Made by a program: the position numbers and the translations under genes. 64,000 nt of DNA from a virus. Taxonomy: Duplodnaviria; Caudoviricetes. This document shows positions 3,676-44,589 of the stretch, piece by piece. The notes below the pieces were generated by a model, which saw only the letters and a list, made by a program, of their open reading frames with translations, was not told where the DNA came from and did no database searches. The stretch spans positions 15,800 through 79,799 of the IMG/VR virus record IMGVR_UViG_3300028588_000001; one strand, written 5' to 3'. Within the stretch, counting starts at the first letter, position 1. Every line of letters begins with the position of its first letter.

Positions 3676-4115
3676 AACGCTCTCCCATGCCGGCCAGGAA
3701 AAAACCGATGTCGTCCGGTGGCGGCATCTTAAAGCGTTCGGCCATGCCGCGCGCTGGCGGTCTCGCGAGCAAGTTGAGCCGCCCGATCCTGCGCAGGTCG
3801 AAGGGTCCCAAGATGACGCCGATCCGGCGCTCGGCGCAGGGCGAAGACTGCACGCTGCGCTTCCCCGGGATCTGCCGCAATCGCACCGACACGACGGTCT
3901 GGGCGCACTCCAACCAGCTCGCGGACGGCAAGGGCATGGGACTGAAAGCAAATGACGAGGCGGGCTGCTATGCCTGCTTCGAGTGCCACTCGTTCCTTGA
4001 TGGCGGCTGGGCCGCGCTCAAGGAATGGACGTGGGACATGGTTCAACGATTTTTCAAGGTCGCGCGCGAACGAAGCCGCGCGCGATTGCAGCACAAAGGC
4101 TTGGTTGCAGCATGA
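3672..4115 (+). CDS. DUF1364/YbcO-like putative His-Cys nuclease
   Basis: IRRSAQGEDCTLRFPGIC...TTVWAHSN...GKGMGLKAND...YACFECHSFLDG. GTG start at 3672. Confidence 0.8.
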   Translation: MKRSPMPARKKPMSSGGGILKRSAMPRAGGLASKLSRPILRRSKGPKMTPIRRSAQGEDCTLRFPGICRNRTDTTVWAHSNQLADGKGMGLKANDEAGCYACFECHSFLDGGWAALKEWTWDMVQRFFKVARERSRARLQHKGLVAA

Positions 4116-17004: not shown

Positions 17005-17832
17005 TTAGGCGGCTGCCCAGGTTGCATCGTCCTTGATGGCCTGCGCGATCACGACCGTGCGGACCTTGATCAGATTCGTGCTGTTGGTCCTGACGCGGTG
17101 GGCGCGCAACTCGTCGCACTTCTGGGAAACGATGGCAAGGCGGCTGCGCAACCAGTTCGCATCGGCCGTGATCTGGGCGTCGGGCTGCTGGGCGCGCAGG
17201 GCCAGGATGCGGGCGATCTGTTCCGGGTCCTTCTGCACGCGGCCGAGGATGTGGAAGCTGTGGTGTTTCAGGGTGGCGCACTCGGCGACCGACATCGCGG
17301 CCGCGTTGCTCGGGATGCCCACGGTGAAGTCGCGGGTTTCGAGGATGACGGCGATGGTGTCGATCAGGTCGGCGGCCGCCAGCGGTCCAGTCTGAATCGG
17401 CACGATGACCTTGACGCCCATGGCGATCAGCTCGCGGACCTCGTTCTCGTACTTGCACAGGCGCTCGATCGATGCCCACTGGTCGCCAACCTTGTCCGGC
17501 GCGACCACGTACAGGCTCGCCGGCGTGATGCCGAAGTCGAGGGTGGATTCGGCGATCCGCTTGTAGGTGGCCAGCACTGCCGGGAAATCCGGCTCGATCT
17601 GGGTTTTCAGTTCCGAGAAGGCGCCGCTGTCGACAAACACGGCGCCGCCGCTCGCGAGATAGCGCGGGAGCGTGATCCCCTTTTGCAACACCATCAACTC
17701 GCCGGCGACGACGCCGACCGGAACGCCGGCCTCGATCGCGCCATGCAGGTCAGGCGAGCGGGACATCCCAGAGCGAAAAGCCAGATCCAGAGCGTGCGTT
17801 GCGGTGGAGTCGTTTTGCAAGGTTGCGGTCAT
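17005..17832 (-). CDS. TGT-fold, DpdA-like putative 7-deazaguanine transglycosylase
   Basis: Ordered motifs VFVDSGAFS, VAPDKVGD, HILG and TADANW, as in the TGT/DpdA barrel. No C-terminal Zn site. Confidence 0.7.
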   Translation of the reverse strand: MTATLQNDSTATHALDLAFRSGMSRSPDLHGAIEAGVPVGVVAGELMVLQKGITLPRYLASGGAVFVDSGAFSELKTQIEPDFPAVLATYKRIAESTLDFGITPASLYVVAPDKVGDQWASIERLCKYENEVRELIAMGVKVIVPIQTGPLAAADLIDTIAVILETRDFTVGIPSNAAAMSVAECATLKHHSFHILGRVQKDPEQIARILALRAQQPDAQITADANWLRSRLAIVSQKCDELRAHRVRTNSTNLIKVRTVVIAQAIKDDATWAAA

Positions 17833-17919
17833 GTTAGATCCTCAGTTTGTGCCCGAGCGCGGTAACACCAGGGCGGGTTTGGTGTGGGTTTTGCTCACCC
17901 TTGCGGGTGAGGCACCATA

Positions 17920-17940
17920 ATACTTGAATTATTCAAGTAT
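17920..17940. promoter_or_regulatory. 21-bp palindromic operator candidate
   Basis: ATACTTGAAT-T-ATTCAAGTAT, with a partial copy GTGAATAATTCAAG at 16972-16985. Confidence 0.55.
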
Positions 17941-18140
17941 CGGAAGGGCGAATTGAGCCGTTTGGTAAGCAGGTAAGCAGAGTTTTGCGAACCATGCGAA
18001 CCGGCTGAAACCCGCATGGATAGTGGCTTTCAGAGGTGTGCAAAATTGCTTGCGCACAATACCGCTGGGAGAACGTGCACACTTACCCCTAAAATTCAAA
18101 CCAATTCGATAGATCTAAAAAGTGGGTCTAGCGAAACGAG

Positions 18141-18217
18141 AGGGGAGTCGCCAAGTTGGTCAAGGCACCGGATTTTGATTCCGGCATTCGTAGGTTCGAT
18201 CCCTACTTCCCCCGCCA
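18141..18217 (+). tRNA. tRNA-Gln(UUG)
   Basis: Cloverleaf: acceptor AGGGGAG/TTCCCCC, anticodon arm CCGGA-TT-TTG-AT-TCCGG, T arm GTAGG-TTCGATC-CCTAC, encoded CCA. Confidence 0.97.
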
Positions 18218-18458
18218 GAACGTCGCGCCACTTCCCAGATAGGGCTGGGCGCAGAGCGAAAGGAAGGCCGGCCCGTGTGGGTCGGCCAGTTCCGAGGCTG
18301 GAATCAGCCCCGAACAAGAGAGCCGGCCGGGCGCCGTTTGTCTTGTTGGTCGCGCACTGGATGCGGGTTAGCTCCGCATTGGTAATGAGCGGCATGAGTA
18401 TCCCAATTGGTTGAGAAAGCACACGGCTTACAGTGAGCGGTGGGCGGCCAACAGACAA

Positions 18459-18512
18459 CACTCCCTGACGAGCCCGTGAGATCCGGGCGAAACGCCGTGA
18501 GGCGTAGGAGTG
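18459..18512 (+). ncRNA. Type I hammerhead ribozyme
   Basis: Stem I CACTCC/GGAGTG, core CUGACGA, stem II GCCCG/CGGGC, GAAA, stem III CGCC-GUGA-GGCG, cleavage triplet GUA (cut after 18506). Confidence 0.9.
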
Positions 18513-18782
18513 ACCGCAACGAGCACTTTCCCCGGGCACAGCGGTTATACCGGGGCAGCCATACGCAAGACATAGGACGCCACCTCTGTGCGCGAGATTT
18601 GATAGGCCGTATGGGCAATGAGGTTGACACTCTGGAAAGACAGGGGCCGTGATGTTGTATCGACTGCCCGCGCCCGGACGGTCCCCTGCAGGGGATAGTG
18701 AGTCTGACGGGGCTCGCGAAAAGCTCGGTAGGACATCGCCAGTTTTCAGCCGCCTTTCTGTAAAAAAGTCGGGCCACATTCC

Positions 18783-18808
18783 AAGCCTCGCCTCGTGCGG
18801 GGCTTTTT
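18783..18808 (+). terminator. Intrinsic terminator
   Basis: AAGCCTCGC-ctcgt-GCGGGGCTTTTT. Confidence 0.8.
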
Positions 18809-18826
18809 CATTTCTAGGACCGCACC

Positions 18827-19270
18827 ATGAACAAAGACCAGAACGACATCGTGATCAGCCGTAAGAACCTGCCGACCGGGCTGGGCCTGGGCGCGCTGAC
18901 TGCCTACTTCCTGCTGTTGACCCACCTCGGCGCGCCGACCTGGGCGTTCTGGATCTTCTACGTGTTCGCCGCCGTGATCGTCCTGGCCGGCATTGTCCGC
19001 CTGTTCCGCACCCGCGAGGTCGACCTGCTGGCGATCGCCCATGCGCGCCCCGCGCCGATCCTCCCGACTGCGCCGGCGCGGCGCGATACGTTCACGCTCA
19101 AGGGCGACGAGATCGTGATCGAGCGCCTGTGCAACGACGTTCTGCGCGTGAGTATTCGTGACGCGAACGGAAATCAGCTGTACTGCTTCAAAGATTATTC
19201 GATCCCGCCGGGCTCGTCGCTGCATCTCCATGATGTGCGTGTCGAAACCGACGTAAGGATCACGTACTGA
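18827..19270 (+). CDS. Membrane protein (two N-terminal TM helices plus soluble C-domain)
   Basis: Hydrophobic segments GLGLGALTAYFLLL and WAFWIFYVFAAVIVLAGIV. AGGA RBS. Confidence 0.7.
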   Translation: MNKDQNDIVISRKNLPTGLGLGALTAYFLLLTHLGAPTWAFWIFYVFAAVIVLAGIVRLFRTREVDLLAIAHARPAPILPTAPARRDTFTLKGDEIVIERLCNDVLRVSIRDANGNQLYCFKDYSIPPGSSLHLHDVRVETDVRITY

Positions 19271-21447: not shown

Positions 21448-22071
21448 ATGGCAGAACCGAAGGCACCCGTCCAATGGGACTTGGTAGAGGTCGATTACCG
21501 CGCCGGCATCCTGTCCCTGAGAGTGATCGGGGCGAAATATGGCGTGTCCGACGCCGGCATCCTCAAGAAAGCGAAGAAAGAGGGCTGGACTCGTGACCTG
21601 GGCGCGAAGATCCGGGAAAAAGCAGCTCAGAAGGTTAGTGCGGCGGCGGTTAGCAAGCCGGTAAGTATACAAACCGCCGCTTACGAGCGCGAACTTGTTG
21701 AAGCAAATGCAACACTTCAATCCGACATCATCCTTGCGCACCGGCAAGACATCCAGCGGTCCCGCCGCCTGACGATGCGCCTGCTCACCGAGCTGGAAGG
21801 ACAAACCGACCACCTCGATCTGGTCGAGCAGCTGCGCGAAATGGTGTACAGCCCGGACGACAAGGGCCAGGACAAGCGCGACGAGCTGATCCGCAAGGTT
21901 ATCTCCCTTGCGAGCCGGTCGAGCACGATGAAAACGCTGGCCGATTCCCTCAAGGTACTGGTCGGCTTGGAGCGCGAGGCGTTCGGCGTCGACGCGGACG
22001 AGAACAAGGGCGGCAGCGAGGTCGACCAGGTTATCAAGCAAGTGAAAGCCAAAATTGCCGCGCGACAATGA
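21448..22071 (+). CDS. terS: Terminase small subunit
   Basis: WDLVEVDYRAGILSLRVIGAKYGVSDAGILKKAKKEGWTR HTH, directly upstream of TerL. Confidence 0.9.
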   Translation: MAEPKAPVQWDLVEVDYRAGILSLRVIGAKYGVSDAGILKKAKKEGWTRDLGAKIREKAAQKVSAAAVSKPVSIQTAAYERELVEANATLQSDIILAHRQDIQRSRRLTMRLLTELEGQTDHLDLVEQLREMVYSPDDKGQDKRDELIRKVISLASRSSTMKTLADSLKVLVGLEREAFGVDADENKGGSEVDQVIKQVKAKIAARQ

Positions 22072-23608
22072 CAACTACCAGCGCGAGCTGGCCGAAACCG
22101 TCGAGATCCTGCGCAGCGACCTTGAGCTGCACTGCGAGACCTGCTTCTTCGTGAAGGACAAGGCGGGCCGCAAGGTTCCGTTCATCTGGAACAAGGCGCA
22201 GCACTACATCCATGCGCGGATCGAGGAGCAGCGCGCGAAAACCGGCAAGGTGCGCGCGATCATCCTCAAGGGCCGCCAGCAGGGCGCCTCGACGTACATC
22301 GCCGGCCGCTACTACGCGCGGACCTCGATCAACGAGGGCATCGGCGCCTTCATCGTGGCGCACGAGCAGAAGGCAACCGACAACCTCTTCACGATGGTGA
22401 AGCGGTATCACGATAACAACCCTCTCGCGCCGTCGACCAAGGCGTCGAACGCGAAAGAGCTGCTGTTCGGCGAGCTGGACGGCGGCTACAAGCTGGCGAC
22501 CGCCGGCAGCGCCGACGTGGGCCGAGGCAACACCGCCCAGCTGCTGCACGCTTCCGAGTTCGCATTCTGGAAGAACGCCCAGAGCCACATGGCCGGCCTG
22601 GGCAACACCATTGCGGACATCGACGGCACCGAGATCATCATCGAGTCGACCGCGAACGGCACGAGCGGCGCCTACCACGAGATGTGGCAGAACGCCGAGG
22701 CCGGGATCGGCGACTACATCGCGATTTTCGTGCCGTGGTTCTGGCAGGACGAGTATCGCGCGCCAGTGCCGCCGGATCTGCTGCTGTCGAAGGACGACGA
22801 TGCCTACATGCAGGCGTACGGCCTCGACATGGAGCAGATGGCGTGGCGCCGCAACAAGATCGTGTCGTACGGCCAAGGCTTCGAGTGGCTTTTCGATCAG
22901 GAATACCCGGCCACCCCGGCACTGGCTTTCAGATCGGCGACCACCGACCCGCTGATCACGCCAACGACCGTCATGGCGGCCGTGAACAGCGGCTATCGCG
23001 AGCGCACCGGCTCGTTCGTGATCGGGTGCGACCCGGCCGAATACGGCGCCGACCGCACCGCGATCGCATTCCGGCACGGCCGGACGTGCTACCGCATCGA
23101 ATATCACGAGAAAAAGGGGCCGATGGAGGTCGCCGGCATCCTGGCGAGCTACTGGAAGGACCTGACGCCGAAGCCTGACGCCATCTTTGTCGACAAGATC
23201 GGCATCGGGTCGGGCATCGTGGACCGCCTCAAGGAGCTGGGCGTGCCCGTCATCGGCGTGAACAGCGCATCCAGGGCCGAGGACAGCGAGCGGTATGCCA
23301 ACAAGCGCGCCGAGATCTGGTACCGGCTCAAGGAATGGTTGGAGGACGGCCCCAACAGGCTACCGAAAGACCCGGCGCTGATCGCCGATATCTCCGCGCC
23401 GAGCTACAAAACGTCGTCCAACGGCTCGCGCCTCATCGAGTCCAAGGACGACATGAAGAAGCGCGGCATGCGCTCCCCGGACGGCGCCGACGCCCTGGCC
23501 ATGACGTTCGCCGAGAACGTGGTACCGCGTGCGCAGCGCGAAGGCAGCGATCGGGGCGACGACTACGGCAGCGGGGACACCGCGCCAGCATCACGAGCAG
23601 GGTATTGA
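22055..23608 (+). CDS. terL: Terminase large subunit
   Basis: KGRQQGAST (Walker A), LLHASEFAFW (Walker B), IESTANG, and nuclease motifs GCDPA, VDKIGIG, SPDGADAL. Confidence 0.97.
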   Translation: MPRDNDNYQRELAETVEILRSDLELHCETCFFVKDKAGRKVPFIWNKAQHYIHARIEEQRAKTGKVRAIILKGRQQGASTYIAGRYYARTSINEGIGAFIVAHEQKATDNLFTMVKRYHDNNPLAPSTKASNAKELLFGELDGGYKLATAGSADVGRGNTAQLLHASEFAFWKNAQSHMAGLGNTIADIDGTEIIIESTANGTSGAYHEMWQNAEAGIGDYIAIFVPWFWQDEYRAPVPPDLLLSKDDDAYMQAYGLDMEQMAWRRNKIVSYGQGFEWLFDQEYPATPALAFRSATTDPLITPTTVMAAVNSGYRERTGSFVIGCDPAEYGADRTAIAFRHGRTCYRIEYHEKKGPMEVAGILASYWKDLTPKPDAIFVDKIGIGSGIVDRLKELGVPVIGVNSASRAEDSERYANKRAEIWYRLKEWLEDGPNRLPKDPALIADISAPSYKTSSNGSRLIESKDDMKKRGMRSPDGADALAMTFAENVVPRAQREGSDRGDDYGSGDTAPASRAGY

Positions 23609-43851: not shown

Positions 43852-44589
43852 ATGTCAGTAGTTGCAGCAGCCGTTATCGGCAGCGCCGTTGTCGGCGGCG
43901 TGGTCTCCAGCAAAGCATCCAAGAATGCAACGCAGGCCCAGGACCGCGCCACCGACGCGAACGCGTACCAGGGCGAGATCGCGACCGACCAATACGACTA
44001 CTACAAGGGCACCTATCGTCCGCTCGAAACGTCACTGGTCGCGGAGGCTACAGCTGCCGGCAGTCAAGCCGAGTACGACAAGGCCGCGGCCGACGCGCAA
44101 TCGACGGTTTCGACCCAGCTGGGCCTTGCAGCGGATCGCTTGCGCCGTACGCCCGGGCTCGACCCATCCAGCGCGGCATCGGCGGCCGCAAACACCAATC
44201 TTGCGCTCAAGGGCGCCGCGATGGGCGCCGGCGCCCAGAACGCAGCGCGTGAGCAGGTCAAGGACAAGGCCTACGCGAAGAAGATGGATGCTGTCGGGCT
44301 CGGCAAGGGCCTCGTGACCAATGCCATGAACGGCCTGAGCAGCGCGGCCGCAACTGCGCAATCCGCAGCGAATGCGCAAAACGCGCAGGCCGCGTCGACC
44401 GCGAGTAGCGTGGGCGGCGCCGCGTCGACGGCAATCACGGCTCTGGCCAACAAGAATTGGGGGCTGACGGGCTACCAGCCGCAGGGCAACTACACCGGCA
44501 CCGGCTCCAGCTGGGTCGACAACTACACGCCCAGCACAGCGCCGGTAACGATTGATCCGAGCGTCGGCGCCGTCATGCCCAGCATTTAA
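43852..44589 (+). CDS. Internal virion (ejection) protein, small
   Basis: MSVVAAAVIGSAVVGGVVSSKAS N-terminus, Ala/Gln/Gly-rich. Confidence 0.85.
   Translation: MSVVAAAVIGSAVVGGVVSSKASKNATQAQDRATDANAYQGEIATDQYDYYKGTYRPLETSLVAEATAAGSQAEYDKAAADAQSTVSTQLGLAADRLRRTPGLDPSSAASAAANTNLALKGAAMGAGAQNAAREQVKDKAYAKKMDAVGLGKGLVTNAMNGLSSAAATAQSAANAQNAQAASTASSVGGAASTAITALANKNWGLTGYQPQGNYTGTGSSWVDNYTPSTAPVTIDPSVGAVMPSI

Follow-up and report, generated by a model that had tools for sequence, protein, structure and literature searches.

The purpose of hammerhead ribozymes in bacteria and phages is still largely unknown. Type I hammerheads of phages and prophages (CL00010, RF00163) usually lie between a stop codon and the next Shine-Dalgarno sequence and ATG, and the order stop codon, hammerhead, GGAGG, ATG is a known phage arrangement (Perreault et al. 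2011, PMC3088659). Ribozymes of another class, the theta (hepatitis delta virus-like) ribozymes, are co-transcribed with phage transfer RNAs (tRNAs), whose 3' end they abut, and a role in the processing of tRNA transcripts has been proposed for them (PMC10879173). In lambdoid phages a promoter, a non-coding leader and a terminator precede the late genes, as with the lambda 6S RNA and StxS of Stx phages, and the terminated late-promoter transcripts can act as regulatory small RNAs (sRNAs; PMC7547250). GOLLD and ROOL are phage-borne, structured non-coding RNAs (ncRNAs) of 500-800 nt, found near tRNA genes. Genes for tRNAs also occur in the late leaders of Stx phages; lambdoid late leaders are not known to carry the cassette described below. 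The locus described here belongs to a Caudoviricetes phage; the window, i.e. the whole stretch of DNA analyzed (64,000 nt, 64% G+C), corresponds to bases 15800-79799 of a 79.8 kb IMG/VR virus record, whose ends are direct terminal repeats by the IMG/VR class. Within the window, a sequence-only reading had singled out the tract 18218-18808 as one ornate, ~590-nt, tRNA-linked ncRNA housing a ribozyme. Comparison with related phages leads to a different partition: the tract is a patchwork non-coding leader of the packaging/structural (late) operon of a ~80-kb phage, and the conserved unit within it, as judged from the sequences compared, is a cassette of ~187 nt (18459-18645, plus strand) found in different leaders, in which a hammerhead is joined to a conserved structured RNA.

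Three copies of the cassette were compared: that of the window; that of a sister phage (L002), found through terS on a contig of 80 kb in the metagenome that also yielded the window; and that of an IMG/VR contig (L207), retrieved by its hammerhead stem II, which matched the cassette covariance model over its full length with 45 bits. The 5' part of the cassette is a type I hammerhead ribozyme (18459-18512, plus strand), detected as one complete match by a descriptor scan, in agreement with the ribozyme noticed by the sequence-only reading. Three stems surround the core: stem I, open, of 6 bp (18459-64/18507-12), and the loop-closed stems II (18472-76/18484-88) and III (18492-96/18501-05, with a GUGA loop), of 5 bp each. 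Core sequences are CUGACGA (18465-71) and GAA (18489-91); every core position fits the consensus, and G10.1-C11.1, A15.1-U16.1 and N1.1-N2.1 are paired. The hammerhead fold is also the minimum free energy structure of the segment. The NUH cleavage triplet is GUA (18504-06), as in L002, and GUC in L207, placing the predicted cut of the window copy between A18506 and G18507. Stem II is the same in all three copies; the core is CUGACGA in L002 and CUGAUGA in L207, a change limited to the variable position N7, and stems I and III covary in L207, where stem I reads GUUCC/GGAAC in place of ACUCC/GGAGU. The Rfam gathering threshold is not reached, the best clan match being RF00008 with 17.1-21.4 bits vs. 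a gathering value of 48.5, for a type III model which fits the type I topology poorly. In its consensus core, open stem I and intergenic location in a phage operon, this ribozyme resembles the described phage hammerheads; the difference lies downstream, where in place of a Shine-Dalgarno sequence and ATG the 3' product starts a conserved, pseudoknotted ncRNA of ~135 nt. The theta ribozymes are likewise self-cleaving and linked to phage tRNAs, but the hammerhead of the window is located 241 nt downstream of the tRNA.

No family of Rfam 15 corresponds to the domain appended to the ribozyme. It opens with an H-type pseudoknot (18513-18555, plus strand), formed by S1 (ACCGC 18513-17/GCGGU 18541-45) and S2 (CCCCGG 18530-35/CCGGGG 18550-55), in which S1 begins without linker after the 3' strand of stem I. 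Next comes helix P3 (CCAUACG 18559-65/CGUAUGG 18608-14), inside which are found the invariant CAAGAC (18566-71) and an inner hairpin of variable sequence, and then the invariant GCAAUG (18615-20). For this part (18559-18620), the comparison of the window with L002 gives 42 invariant nt. UGACAC and the closing hairpin CUCUG-GAAAGA-CAGGG (18625-18645) make up the 3' end of the cassette. A pseudoknot had been predicted from the sequence alone between GCGGT (18437-41) and ACCGC (18513-17): its upstream partner has no counterpart in L002 or L207, while ACCGC covaries with 18541-45, and the prediction is not supported.

L002 has the same order of elements as the window (tRNA-Gln, spacer, hammerhead, conserved domain, terminator). 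The two genomes are 66-79% identical in every other alignable segment, terL and portal included; the exceptions are the promoter and tRNA (82%) and the segment 18460-18643, identical at 88% by BLAST and at 92-94% by MAFFT, which is the best-conserved stretch of both phage genomes. Twelve substitutions are found 3' of the cleavage site. Four of them make two compensatory pairs (A18513/U18545 to G/C and C18533/G18552 to G/C), turning S1 into GCCGC/GCGGC and S2 into CCCGGG/CCCGGG; one more keeps its pair as G-U, and the remaining ones are located in loops. A deletion in L002 cuts the 3' arm of the closing hairpin, ending inside that hairpin.

In L207 the helices are rebuilt with other bases between the invariant CAAGAC and GGGCAAUG. 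S1 reads GAUGC/GCAUC, S2 GCCGA/UCGGC, P3 GUGCGG/CCGCAU and the closing hairpin CCUCG-GAGAGA-CGGGG, while the unpaired CAAGAC, (G)GGCAAUG and UGACAC are kept at equal spacing. When the helix registers are set by hand, anchored by the invariant motifs, 15 of the 35 pairs are changed on both sides and still paired. These compensatory changes across the three copies argue for selection on the structure of an RNA rather than on DNA. In L207 no tRNA accompanies the cassette, which has a cI-like repressor gene on its upstream side and recombination genes on its downstream side; a tRNA-RNA-ribozyme unit of the kind initially supposed is thus not obligatory. A structured ncRNA housing the ribozyme does exist, in the sense that it is selected, has no Rfam 15 counterpart and is tRNA-linked in two phages, but its conserved unit is restricted to the ~187 nt of the cassette.

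The absence of a credible open reading frame (ORF) in the tract, noted from the sequence alone, is borne out. The long minus-strand ORFs fail a test of G+C content by codon position (GC3) and have no Pfam match. The plus frame open at 18507-18652 was rejected as coding, 11 of its 12 differences from L002 being amino-acid changes. A 13-codon AUG ORF (18611-18652) was also considered and discarded: L207 keeps only its first residues (MGN), the later codons being frame-shifted, which places the conservation at the RNA level.

The tract sits in a gene-free gap of ~1 kb, flanked on one side by a minus-strand gene (17005-17832) and on the other by a plus-strand block including terS (21448-22071), terL (22055-23608) and structural genes. 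Its leader was compared also with those of two prophage-like Oxalobacteraceae contigs (L123 and L124), found through terL in GTDB genomes. A block of ~100 nt (18036-18135, plus strand), containing a TAAAAT -10-like hexamer, a conserved downstream stretch and TGTGCA../..TGCACAC repeats, is conserved in the window, L002, L123 and L124, always upstream of terS/terL and, in the latter two, at a few hundred bases from them; most simply, it would represent the promoter and the start of the packaging/structural operon. It is followed by a tRNA-Gln gene (anticodon UUG; 18141-18217, plus strand) with an encoded CCA, detected by ARAGORN and by the Rfam tRNA model (55.2 bits), which confirms the adjacent tRNA of the sequence-only reading; the gene is kept in L002 and absent at the corresponding place in L123 and L124. 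Next comes a backbone hairpin, GCGCC..CCAGAUAGG..GGCGC (18225-18252, plus strand), kept in L002 and L124, whose loop motif CCAGATAGG is also present in L123. At the other end of the tract, a backbone tail starting with CCAGUUUUCAGCCGC and ending in an intrinsic terminator (18739-18812, plus strand; terminator scan) has homologs in L002 and L124. The terminator, with its stem at 18783-18805 and a U tract, precedes the first late-strand gene (18827-19270) by 15 nt.

In L124 the CCAGAUAGG-loop hairpin is followed, after nineteen bases, by CCAGUUUUCAGCCGC and the terminator (window 18739-18808). Both L123 and L124 have leaders with two terminators each, and with neither tRNA nor hammerhead. A conserved promoter-proximal region, one or more terminators and then late/packaging genes are thus found in the window, L002, L123 and L124. 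By this comparison the ancestral leader is put down as short, a hairpin and then a terminator, as in lambdoid late promoters. Because L123 and L124 share the promoter block and the hairpin, and L124 also the tail, without tRNA and hammerhead, the tRNA and the segment 18253-18738 are interpreted as inserts into a short, terminated late-operon leader. As with the lambdoid late leaders, a promoter, a non-coding leader and a terminator precede the late genes; as in Stx phages a tRNA is embedded, and the short transcript could be a regulatory RNA. The window differs from them in that sequence similarity is limited to a 37-nt terminator look-alike and that no Q-like antiterminator was recognized, Pfam and PHROG giving no match among the candidate ORFs of the window or of L124; the upstream ORFs of L123 and L124 have no counterpart in the window phage. 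A riboswitch or attenuator acting on the terminator was considered and rejected, since the terminator and its 5' flank are part of the backbone and are present in L124, which lacks the domain; moreover, the spacing of domain and terminator changes by 95 nt from the window to L002.

Between backbone and cassette, the tract is occupied by further modules. A variable GC-rich spacer (18253-18335, plus strand) contains a GGCCGGCCC/GGGTCGGCC hairpin and others; it aligns poorly to L002, which carries a different hairpin at this place. In the next module, called clamp here (18336-18458, plus strand), a helix (18338-53/18444-58) encloses the CACTG/CAGTG pairing and an AUGCGG/CCGCAU hairpin. The helix is the 15-bp one reported by the sequence-only reading as abutting hammerhead stem I, which is correct, with one bulged U and one G-U. 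The clamp is probably also a folded unit. Its counterpart in L002 keeps the ~120-nt size, folds with a z-score of -2.06 and shows compensatory changes (GGTCGC/GCGGCC to GATCGC/GCGATC; in the hairpin, A-U to C-G); in L207 the module was not found. The 5' arm of the 15-bp helix, UGUCUUGUU, could be paired with AACAAGAGA in place of CAACAGACAA (positions 18313-18321, 18339-18347 and 18449-18458). Sequence and alternative pairing are both kept in L002, and for this reason the clamp may contain a conformational switch. A long-range pairing (18330-45/18566-81) was also detected and set aside, not being conserved in L207. On the 3' side of the cassette, a module with TCCCC/GGGGA and GAGC../..GCTC hairpins (18646-18738, plus strand) is specific to the window and absent from L002. 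The TCCCC/GGGGA helix had been listed as part of the RNA and falls within this segment. Both 18253-18335 and 18646-18738 are lineage-specific.

The other helices listed from the sequence alone are readable as stated, with ATGCGG/CCGCAT at 18361-66/18374-79, CCCCGG/CCGGGG at 18530-35/18550-55 and CCATACG/CGTATGG at 18559-65/18608-14. Whether pairing is dense beyond chance depends on the part considered. The hammerhead (18459-18512; folding z-score -3.16) and the clamp (18336-18460; -2.39) support the claim, but the whole tract has a z-score of -1.83, with 4 of 100 shuffles equally good, and the best-conserved part (18507-18643) one of +0.43. Values for the first spacer (18218-18335) and the module 18644-18738 are -1.67 and -0.93.

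The proposed course of events starts with transcription from the conserved promoter block, which would yield tRNA-Gln together with the leader. The hammerhead would cut after A18506, which would leave a tRNA-bearing 5' piece terminated by a 2',3'-cyclic phosphate and a separate RNA, beginning GGAGUG, with a 5'-OH. The 5' end of the released RNA would be held by stem I, on which S1 could stack; without read-through, this 3' product would end at the terminator, for a length of ~300 nt, its conserved part ending at the GARAGA hairpin (~140 nt). That the functional product is this ribozyme-released structured RNA, acting independently of the late operon as such, e.g. by binding a protein, is favoured at even odds or slightly less, because no other sequence of the genome is as constrained as the cassette, and because it is found also in the unrelated, tRNA-less leader of L207. 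It is a tentative extension, and one that we regard as rather improbable, that the cassette (S1/S2 pseudoknot, P3 with CAAGAC...GGGCAAUG, GARAGA hairpin) represents an undescribed class of self-liberating phage sRNAs, mobile between leaders and acting in trans, e.g. as a protein decoy, an anti-defence RNA or a 5'-OH substrate for host RNA repair/ligation. Several observations weigh against the independent RNA. The nested-fold energy of the appended domain is ordinary (z about 0), by folding tools for nested structures that cannot score a pseudoknot. Covariation among homologs, suggested as a check with the first description of the tract, is found as compensatory pairs across the three copies, but a two-sequence shuffle control is not significant (102/500), having no power with two sequences; the copies are only three, two of them from close relatives of one metagenome, and covariation statistics are weak. 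If a mobile cassette was exchanged recently, part of the high identity with L002 could be due to this and not to stronger constraint. As to the promoter, its role is read only from the conservation and position of the 18036-18135 block, in which a scan with the sigma-70 consensus found no site; the promoter may depend on an activator or an antiterminator. Lastly, all three copies are located in leaders upstream of same-strand genes, which fits a role in cis equally well.

Such a cis role is the main rival, although we consider it doubtful: the cut would remove the tRNA and the leader, and a pseudoknotted 5'-OH cap would stabilize or tune the downstream mRNA, a free sRNA being irrelevant. Besides the position of the genes, it is favoured by a scan of IMG/VR for the hammerhead stem II (GCCCG..CGGGC), which retrieved ~35 phage contigs, frequently with more than one hammerhead to a contig; in nearly all of them a stop codon precedes the hammerhead and GGAGG and ATG follow it, the arrangement of intercistronic mRNA processing (Perreault 2011, PMC3088659). 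In the window and L002, however, an intrinsic terminator separates the cassette from the first gene, the distance to the next gene varies (~180 nt in the window, ~90 in L002, ~200 in L207), and the unpaired motifs are more strongly conserved than a protective hairpin needs. Next in rank, and quite unlikely, is a domain serving the ribozyme itself, with the pseudoknot stacking on stem I and providing a tertiary contact, or a ligand or protein switch, for the cleavage rate. The zero-nucleotide junction between the 3' strand of stem I and S1 in all three copies agrees with this, as do the pseudoknots bracing stems I and II which are common in natural hammerheads (PMC3088659), and stem I would face a competitor in the alternative pairing of GGAGUGACCGC to GCGGUUAUACC that the window and L002 allow; the latter pairing is impossible in L207, there is no covarying loop II partner, the appended domain is missing from sister hammerheads that have this stem II, and only 18513-18555 would be accounted for, not the equally conserved P3, CAAGAC, GGGCAAUG and hairpin. 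It seems very unlikely that the locus has no function for the organism, being a selfish mobile hammerhead with decaying spacer or a site acting at the DNA level: the leader is indeed a patchwork in which a rare cassette is gained and lost, but base pairs have changed in a compensatory manner across the three copies, and no other segment of the two genomes is as conserved. The single ornate RNA of ~590 nt, working as a whole in the manner of GOLLD or ROOL, is largely refuted and is given hardly any weight. It shares with these RNAs a phage origin, a nearby tRNA gene, structure and lack of coding capacity, and it could appeal to the many helices, to the z-score of the whole tract and to the clamp architecture, kept in L002 with compensatory changes. 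The whole architecture is however not conserved: between these close relatives there are unalignable stretches and large indels from tRNA to hammerhead, including ~155 extra nt between clamp and hammerhead in L002, which in turn lacks 95 nt (18644-18737). Modules are gained and lost independently, only 18459-18645 is well kept, the tract begins and ends in backbone sequence that occurs also without the middle, the remainder is made up of this backbone and variable spacers, and the cassette stands alone in L207.

The ribozyme-released RNA favoured above can be addressed directly, because a natural matched set exists: the leader with the cassette (window, L002), the leader without it (L123, L124) and the cassette elsewhere (L207) make a direct test of function possible. 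The locus also suggests caution in the description of large phage RNAs, since a late leader can consist of several RNA modules, each exchanged on its own, and not of a single 'ornate' RNA.

Searches for known families and further copies were performed at several levels. An Rfam comparison, called for by the sequence-only reading, returned no GOLLD, ROOL or other large-RNA match, either for the whole window at gathering thresholds or for 17800-19000 at E up to 10. With three sub-regions also compared at E up to 10, nothing came up but the tRNA and hammerhead matches below threshold. BLAST of the tract against GenBank phages detected only the tRNA and the 37-nt terminator look-alike, and against PLSDB plasmids nothing. 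With terS as bait, 80 IMG/VR loci were collected, among which the RNA is present only in L002; the upstream gene at 17005-17832 retrieved no IMG/VR loci, and the 40 metagenome loci that it did retrieve lack the RNA. When IMG/VR was scanned with patterns of the domain, the matches were confined to the L002 contig and L207; in GTDB genomes there were none. Two covariance models (R1, R2) gave no credible match in 151 family and 151 order genomes of the Massilia relative and none in 86 other loci, these searches being samples under strict filters and hence not evidence of absence. Within the data searched the cassette is rare, with three copies in IMG/VR and ~300 sampled Burkholderiales genomes without a model match. 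No antisense target of the RNA was found in either phage genome, and an enrichment in CsrA-type GGA motifs was rejected, GGA being no commoner in the sequence than base composition predicts.

The 37-nt look-alike is a 92% match between window positions 18778-18814 and 44324-44361 of Escherichia phage HK639 (L190:2501-2538). The late leader of HK639 is 900 nt long, with four terminators annotated from Q to the lysis genes, and the match falls on the first of these, immediately after Q. Similar GC-rich terminators may have arisen by chance, or the match may represent a tR'-type element that is widely shared.

In many of the terS relatives (L003-L062), terS is preceded at 0.1-2.7 kb by one tRNA gene or two, with Met, Ser, Gly, Trp, Pro, Tyr and Gln specificities, for which reason the leader position can be regarded as a common landing place for tRNAs. 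In L019 the tRNA-Gln(UUG) call is 97 nt long and may contain an insertion.

The closest terL relatives in GTDB genomes belong to Massilia frigida (78%), an Oxalobacteraceae bacterium (76%) and Undibacterium (65%), which makes a phage host within the Oxalobacteraceae probable. The minus-strand gene upstream of the leader (17005-17832) encodes a 275-aa protein with over 170 homologs at 49-80% identity and with many invariant residues (D68, D113, D117, H190, H194, D224, N226, W227). The sequence-only reading had labelled it TGT/DpdA-like; Pfam and PHROG gave no family. A linkage of the RNA cassette to this gene was rejected, the L002 genome having only a 33% homolog ~35 kb away.

In L207, a match to the Rfam Burkholderiales-2 RNA (3951-4025, minus strand; 45.6 bits, E = 1e-4), below the gathering threshold of 67.9, shares a ~1-kb gene-free region with the cassette, pointing to a host in the Burkholderiales and to a region with multiple RNAs. 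A GARAGA-type hairpin, of the form UGACA(C/G)-stem-GARAGA-stem, is found three times in the same contig (4369-4389, 4559-4580 and 4683-4704). Copies bracket the cassette, one being directly upstream of the hammerhead, and the third, ~120 nt downstream, closes a module of ~100 nt; the hairpin may be a 'punctuation' element for processing or recombination.

In L193 (6034-7060), a pair of type I hammerheads with a spacing of exactly 283 nt is joined by a third ~700 nt further, each preceding a small ORF; the same type of arrangement is seen in L197, L203, L211, L216, L218 and L223. Each of the three L193 hammerheads is followed by CUGCAAUGGAG, a few bases before the ATG, and the GCAAUG core of this motif is also present in the window cassette, at 18615-20.

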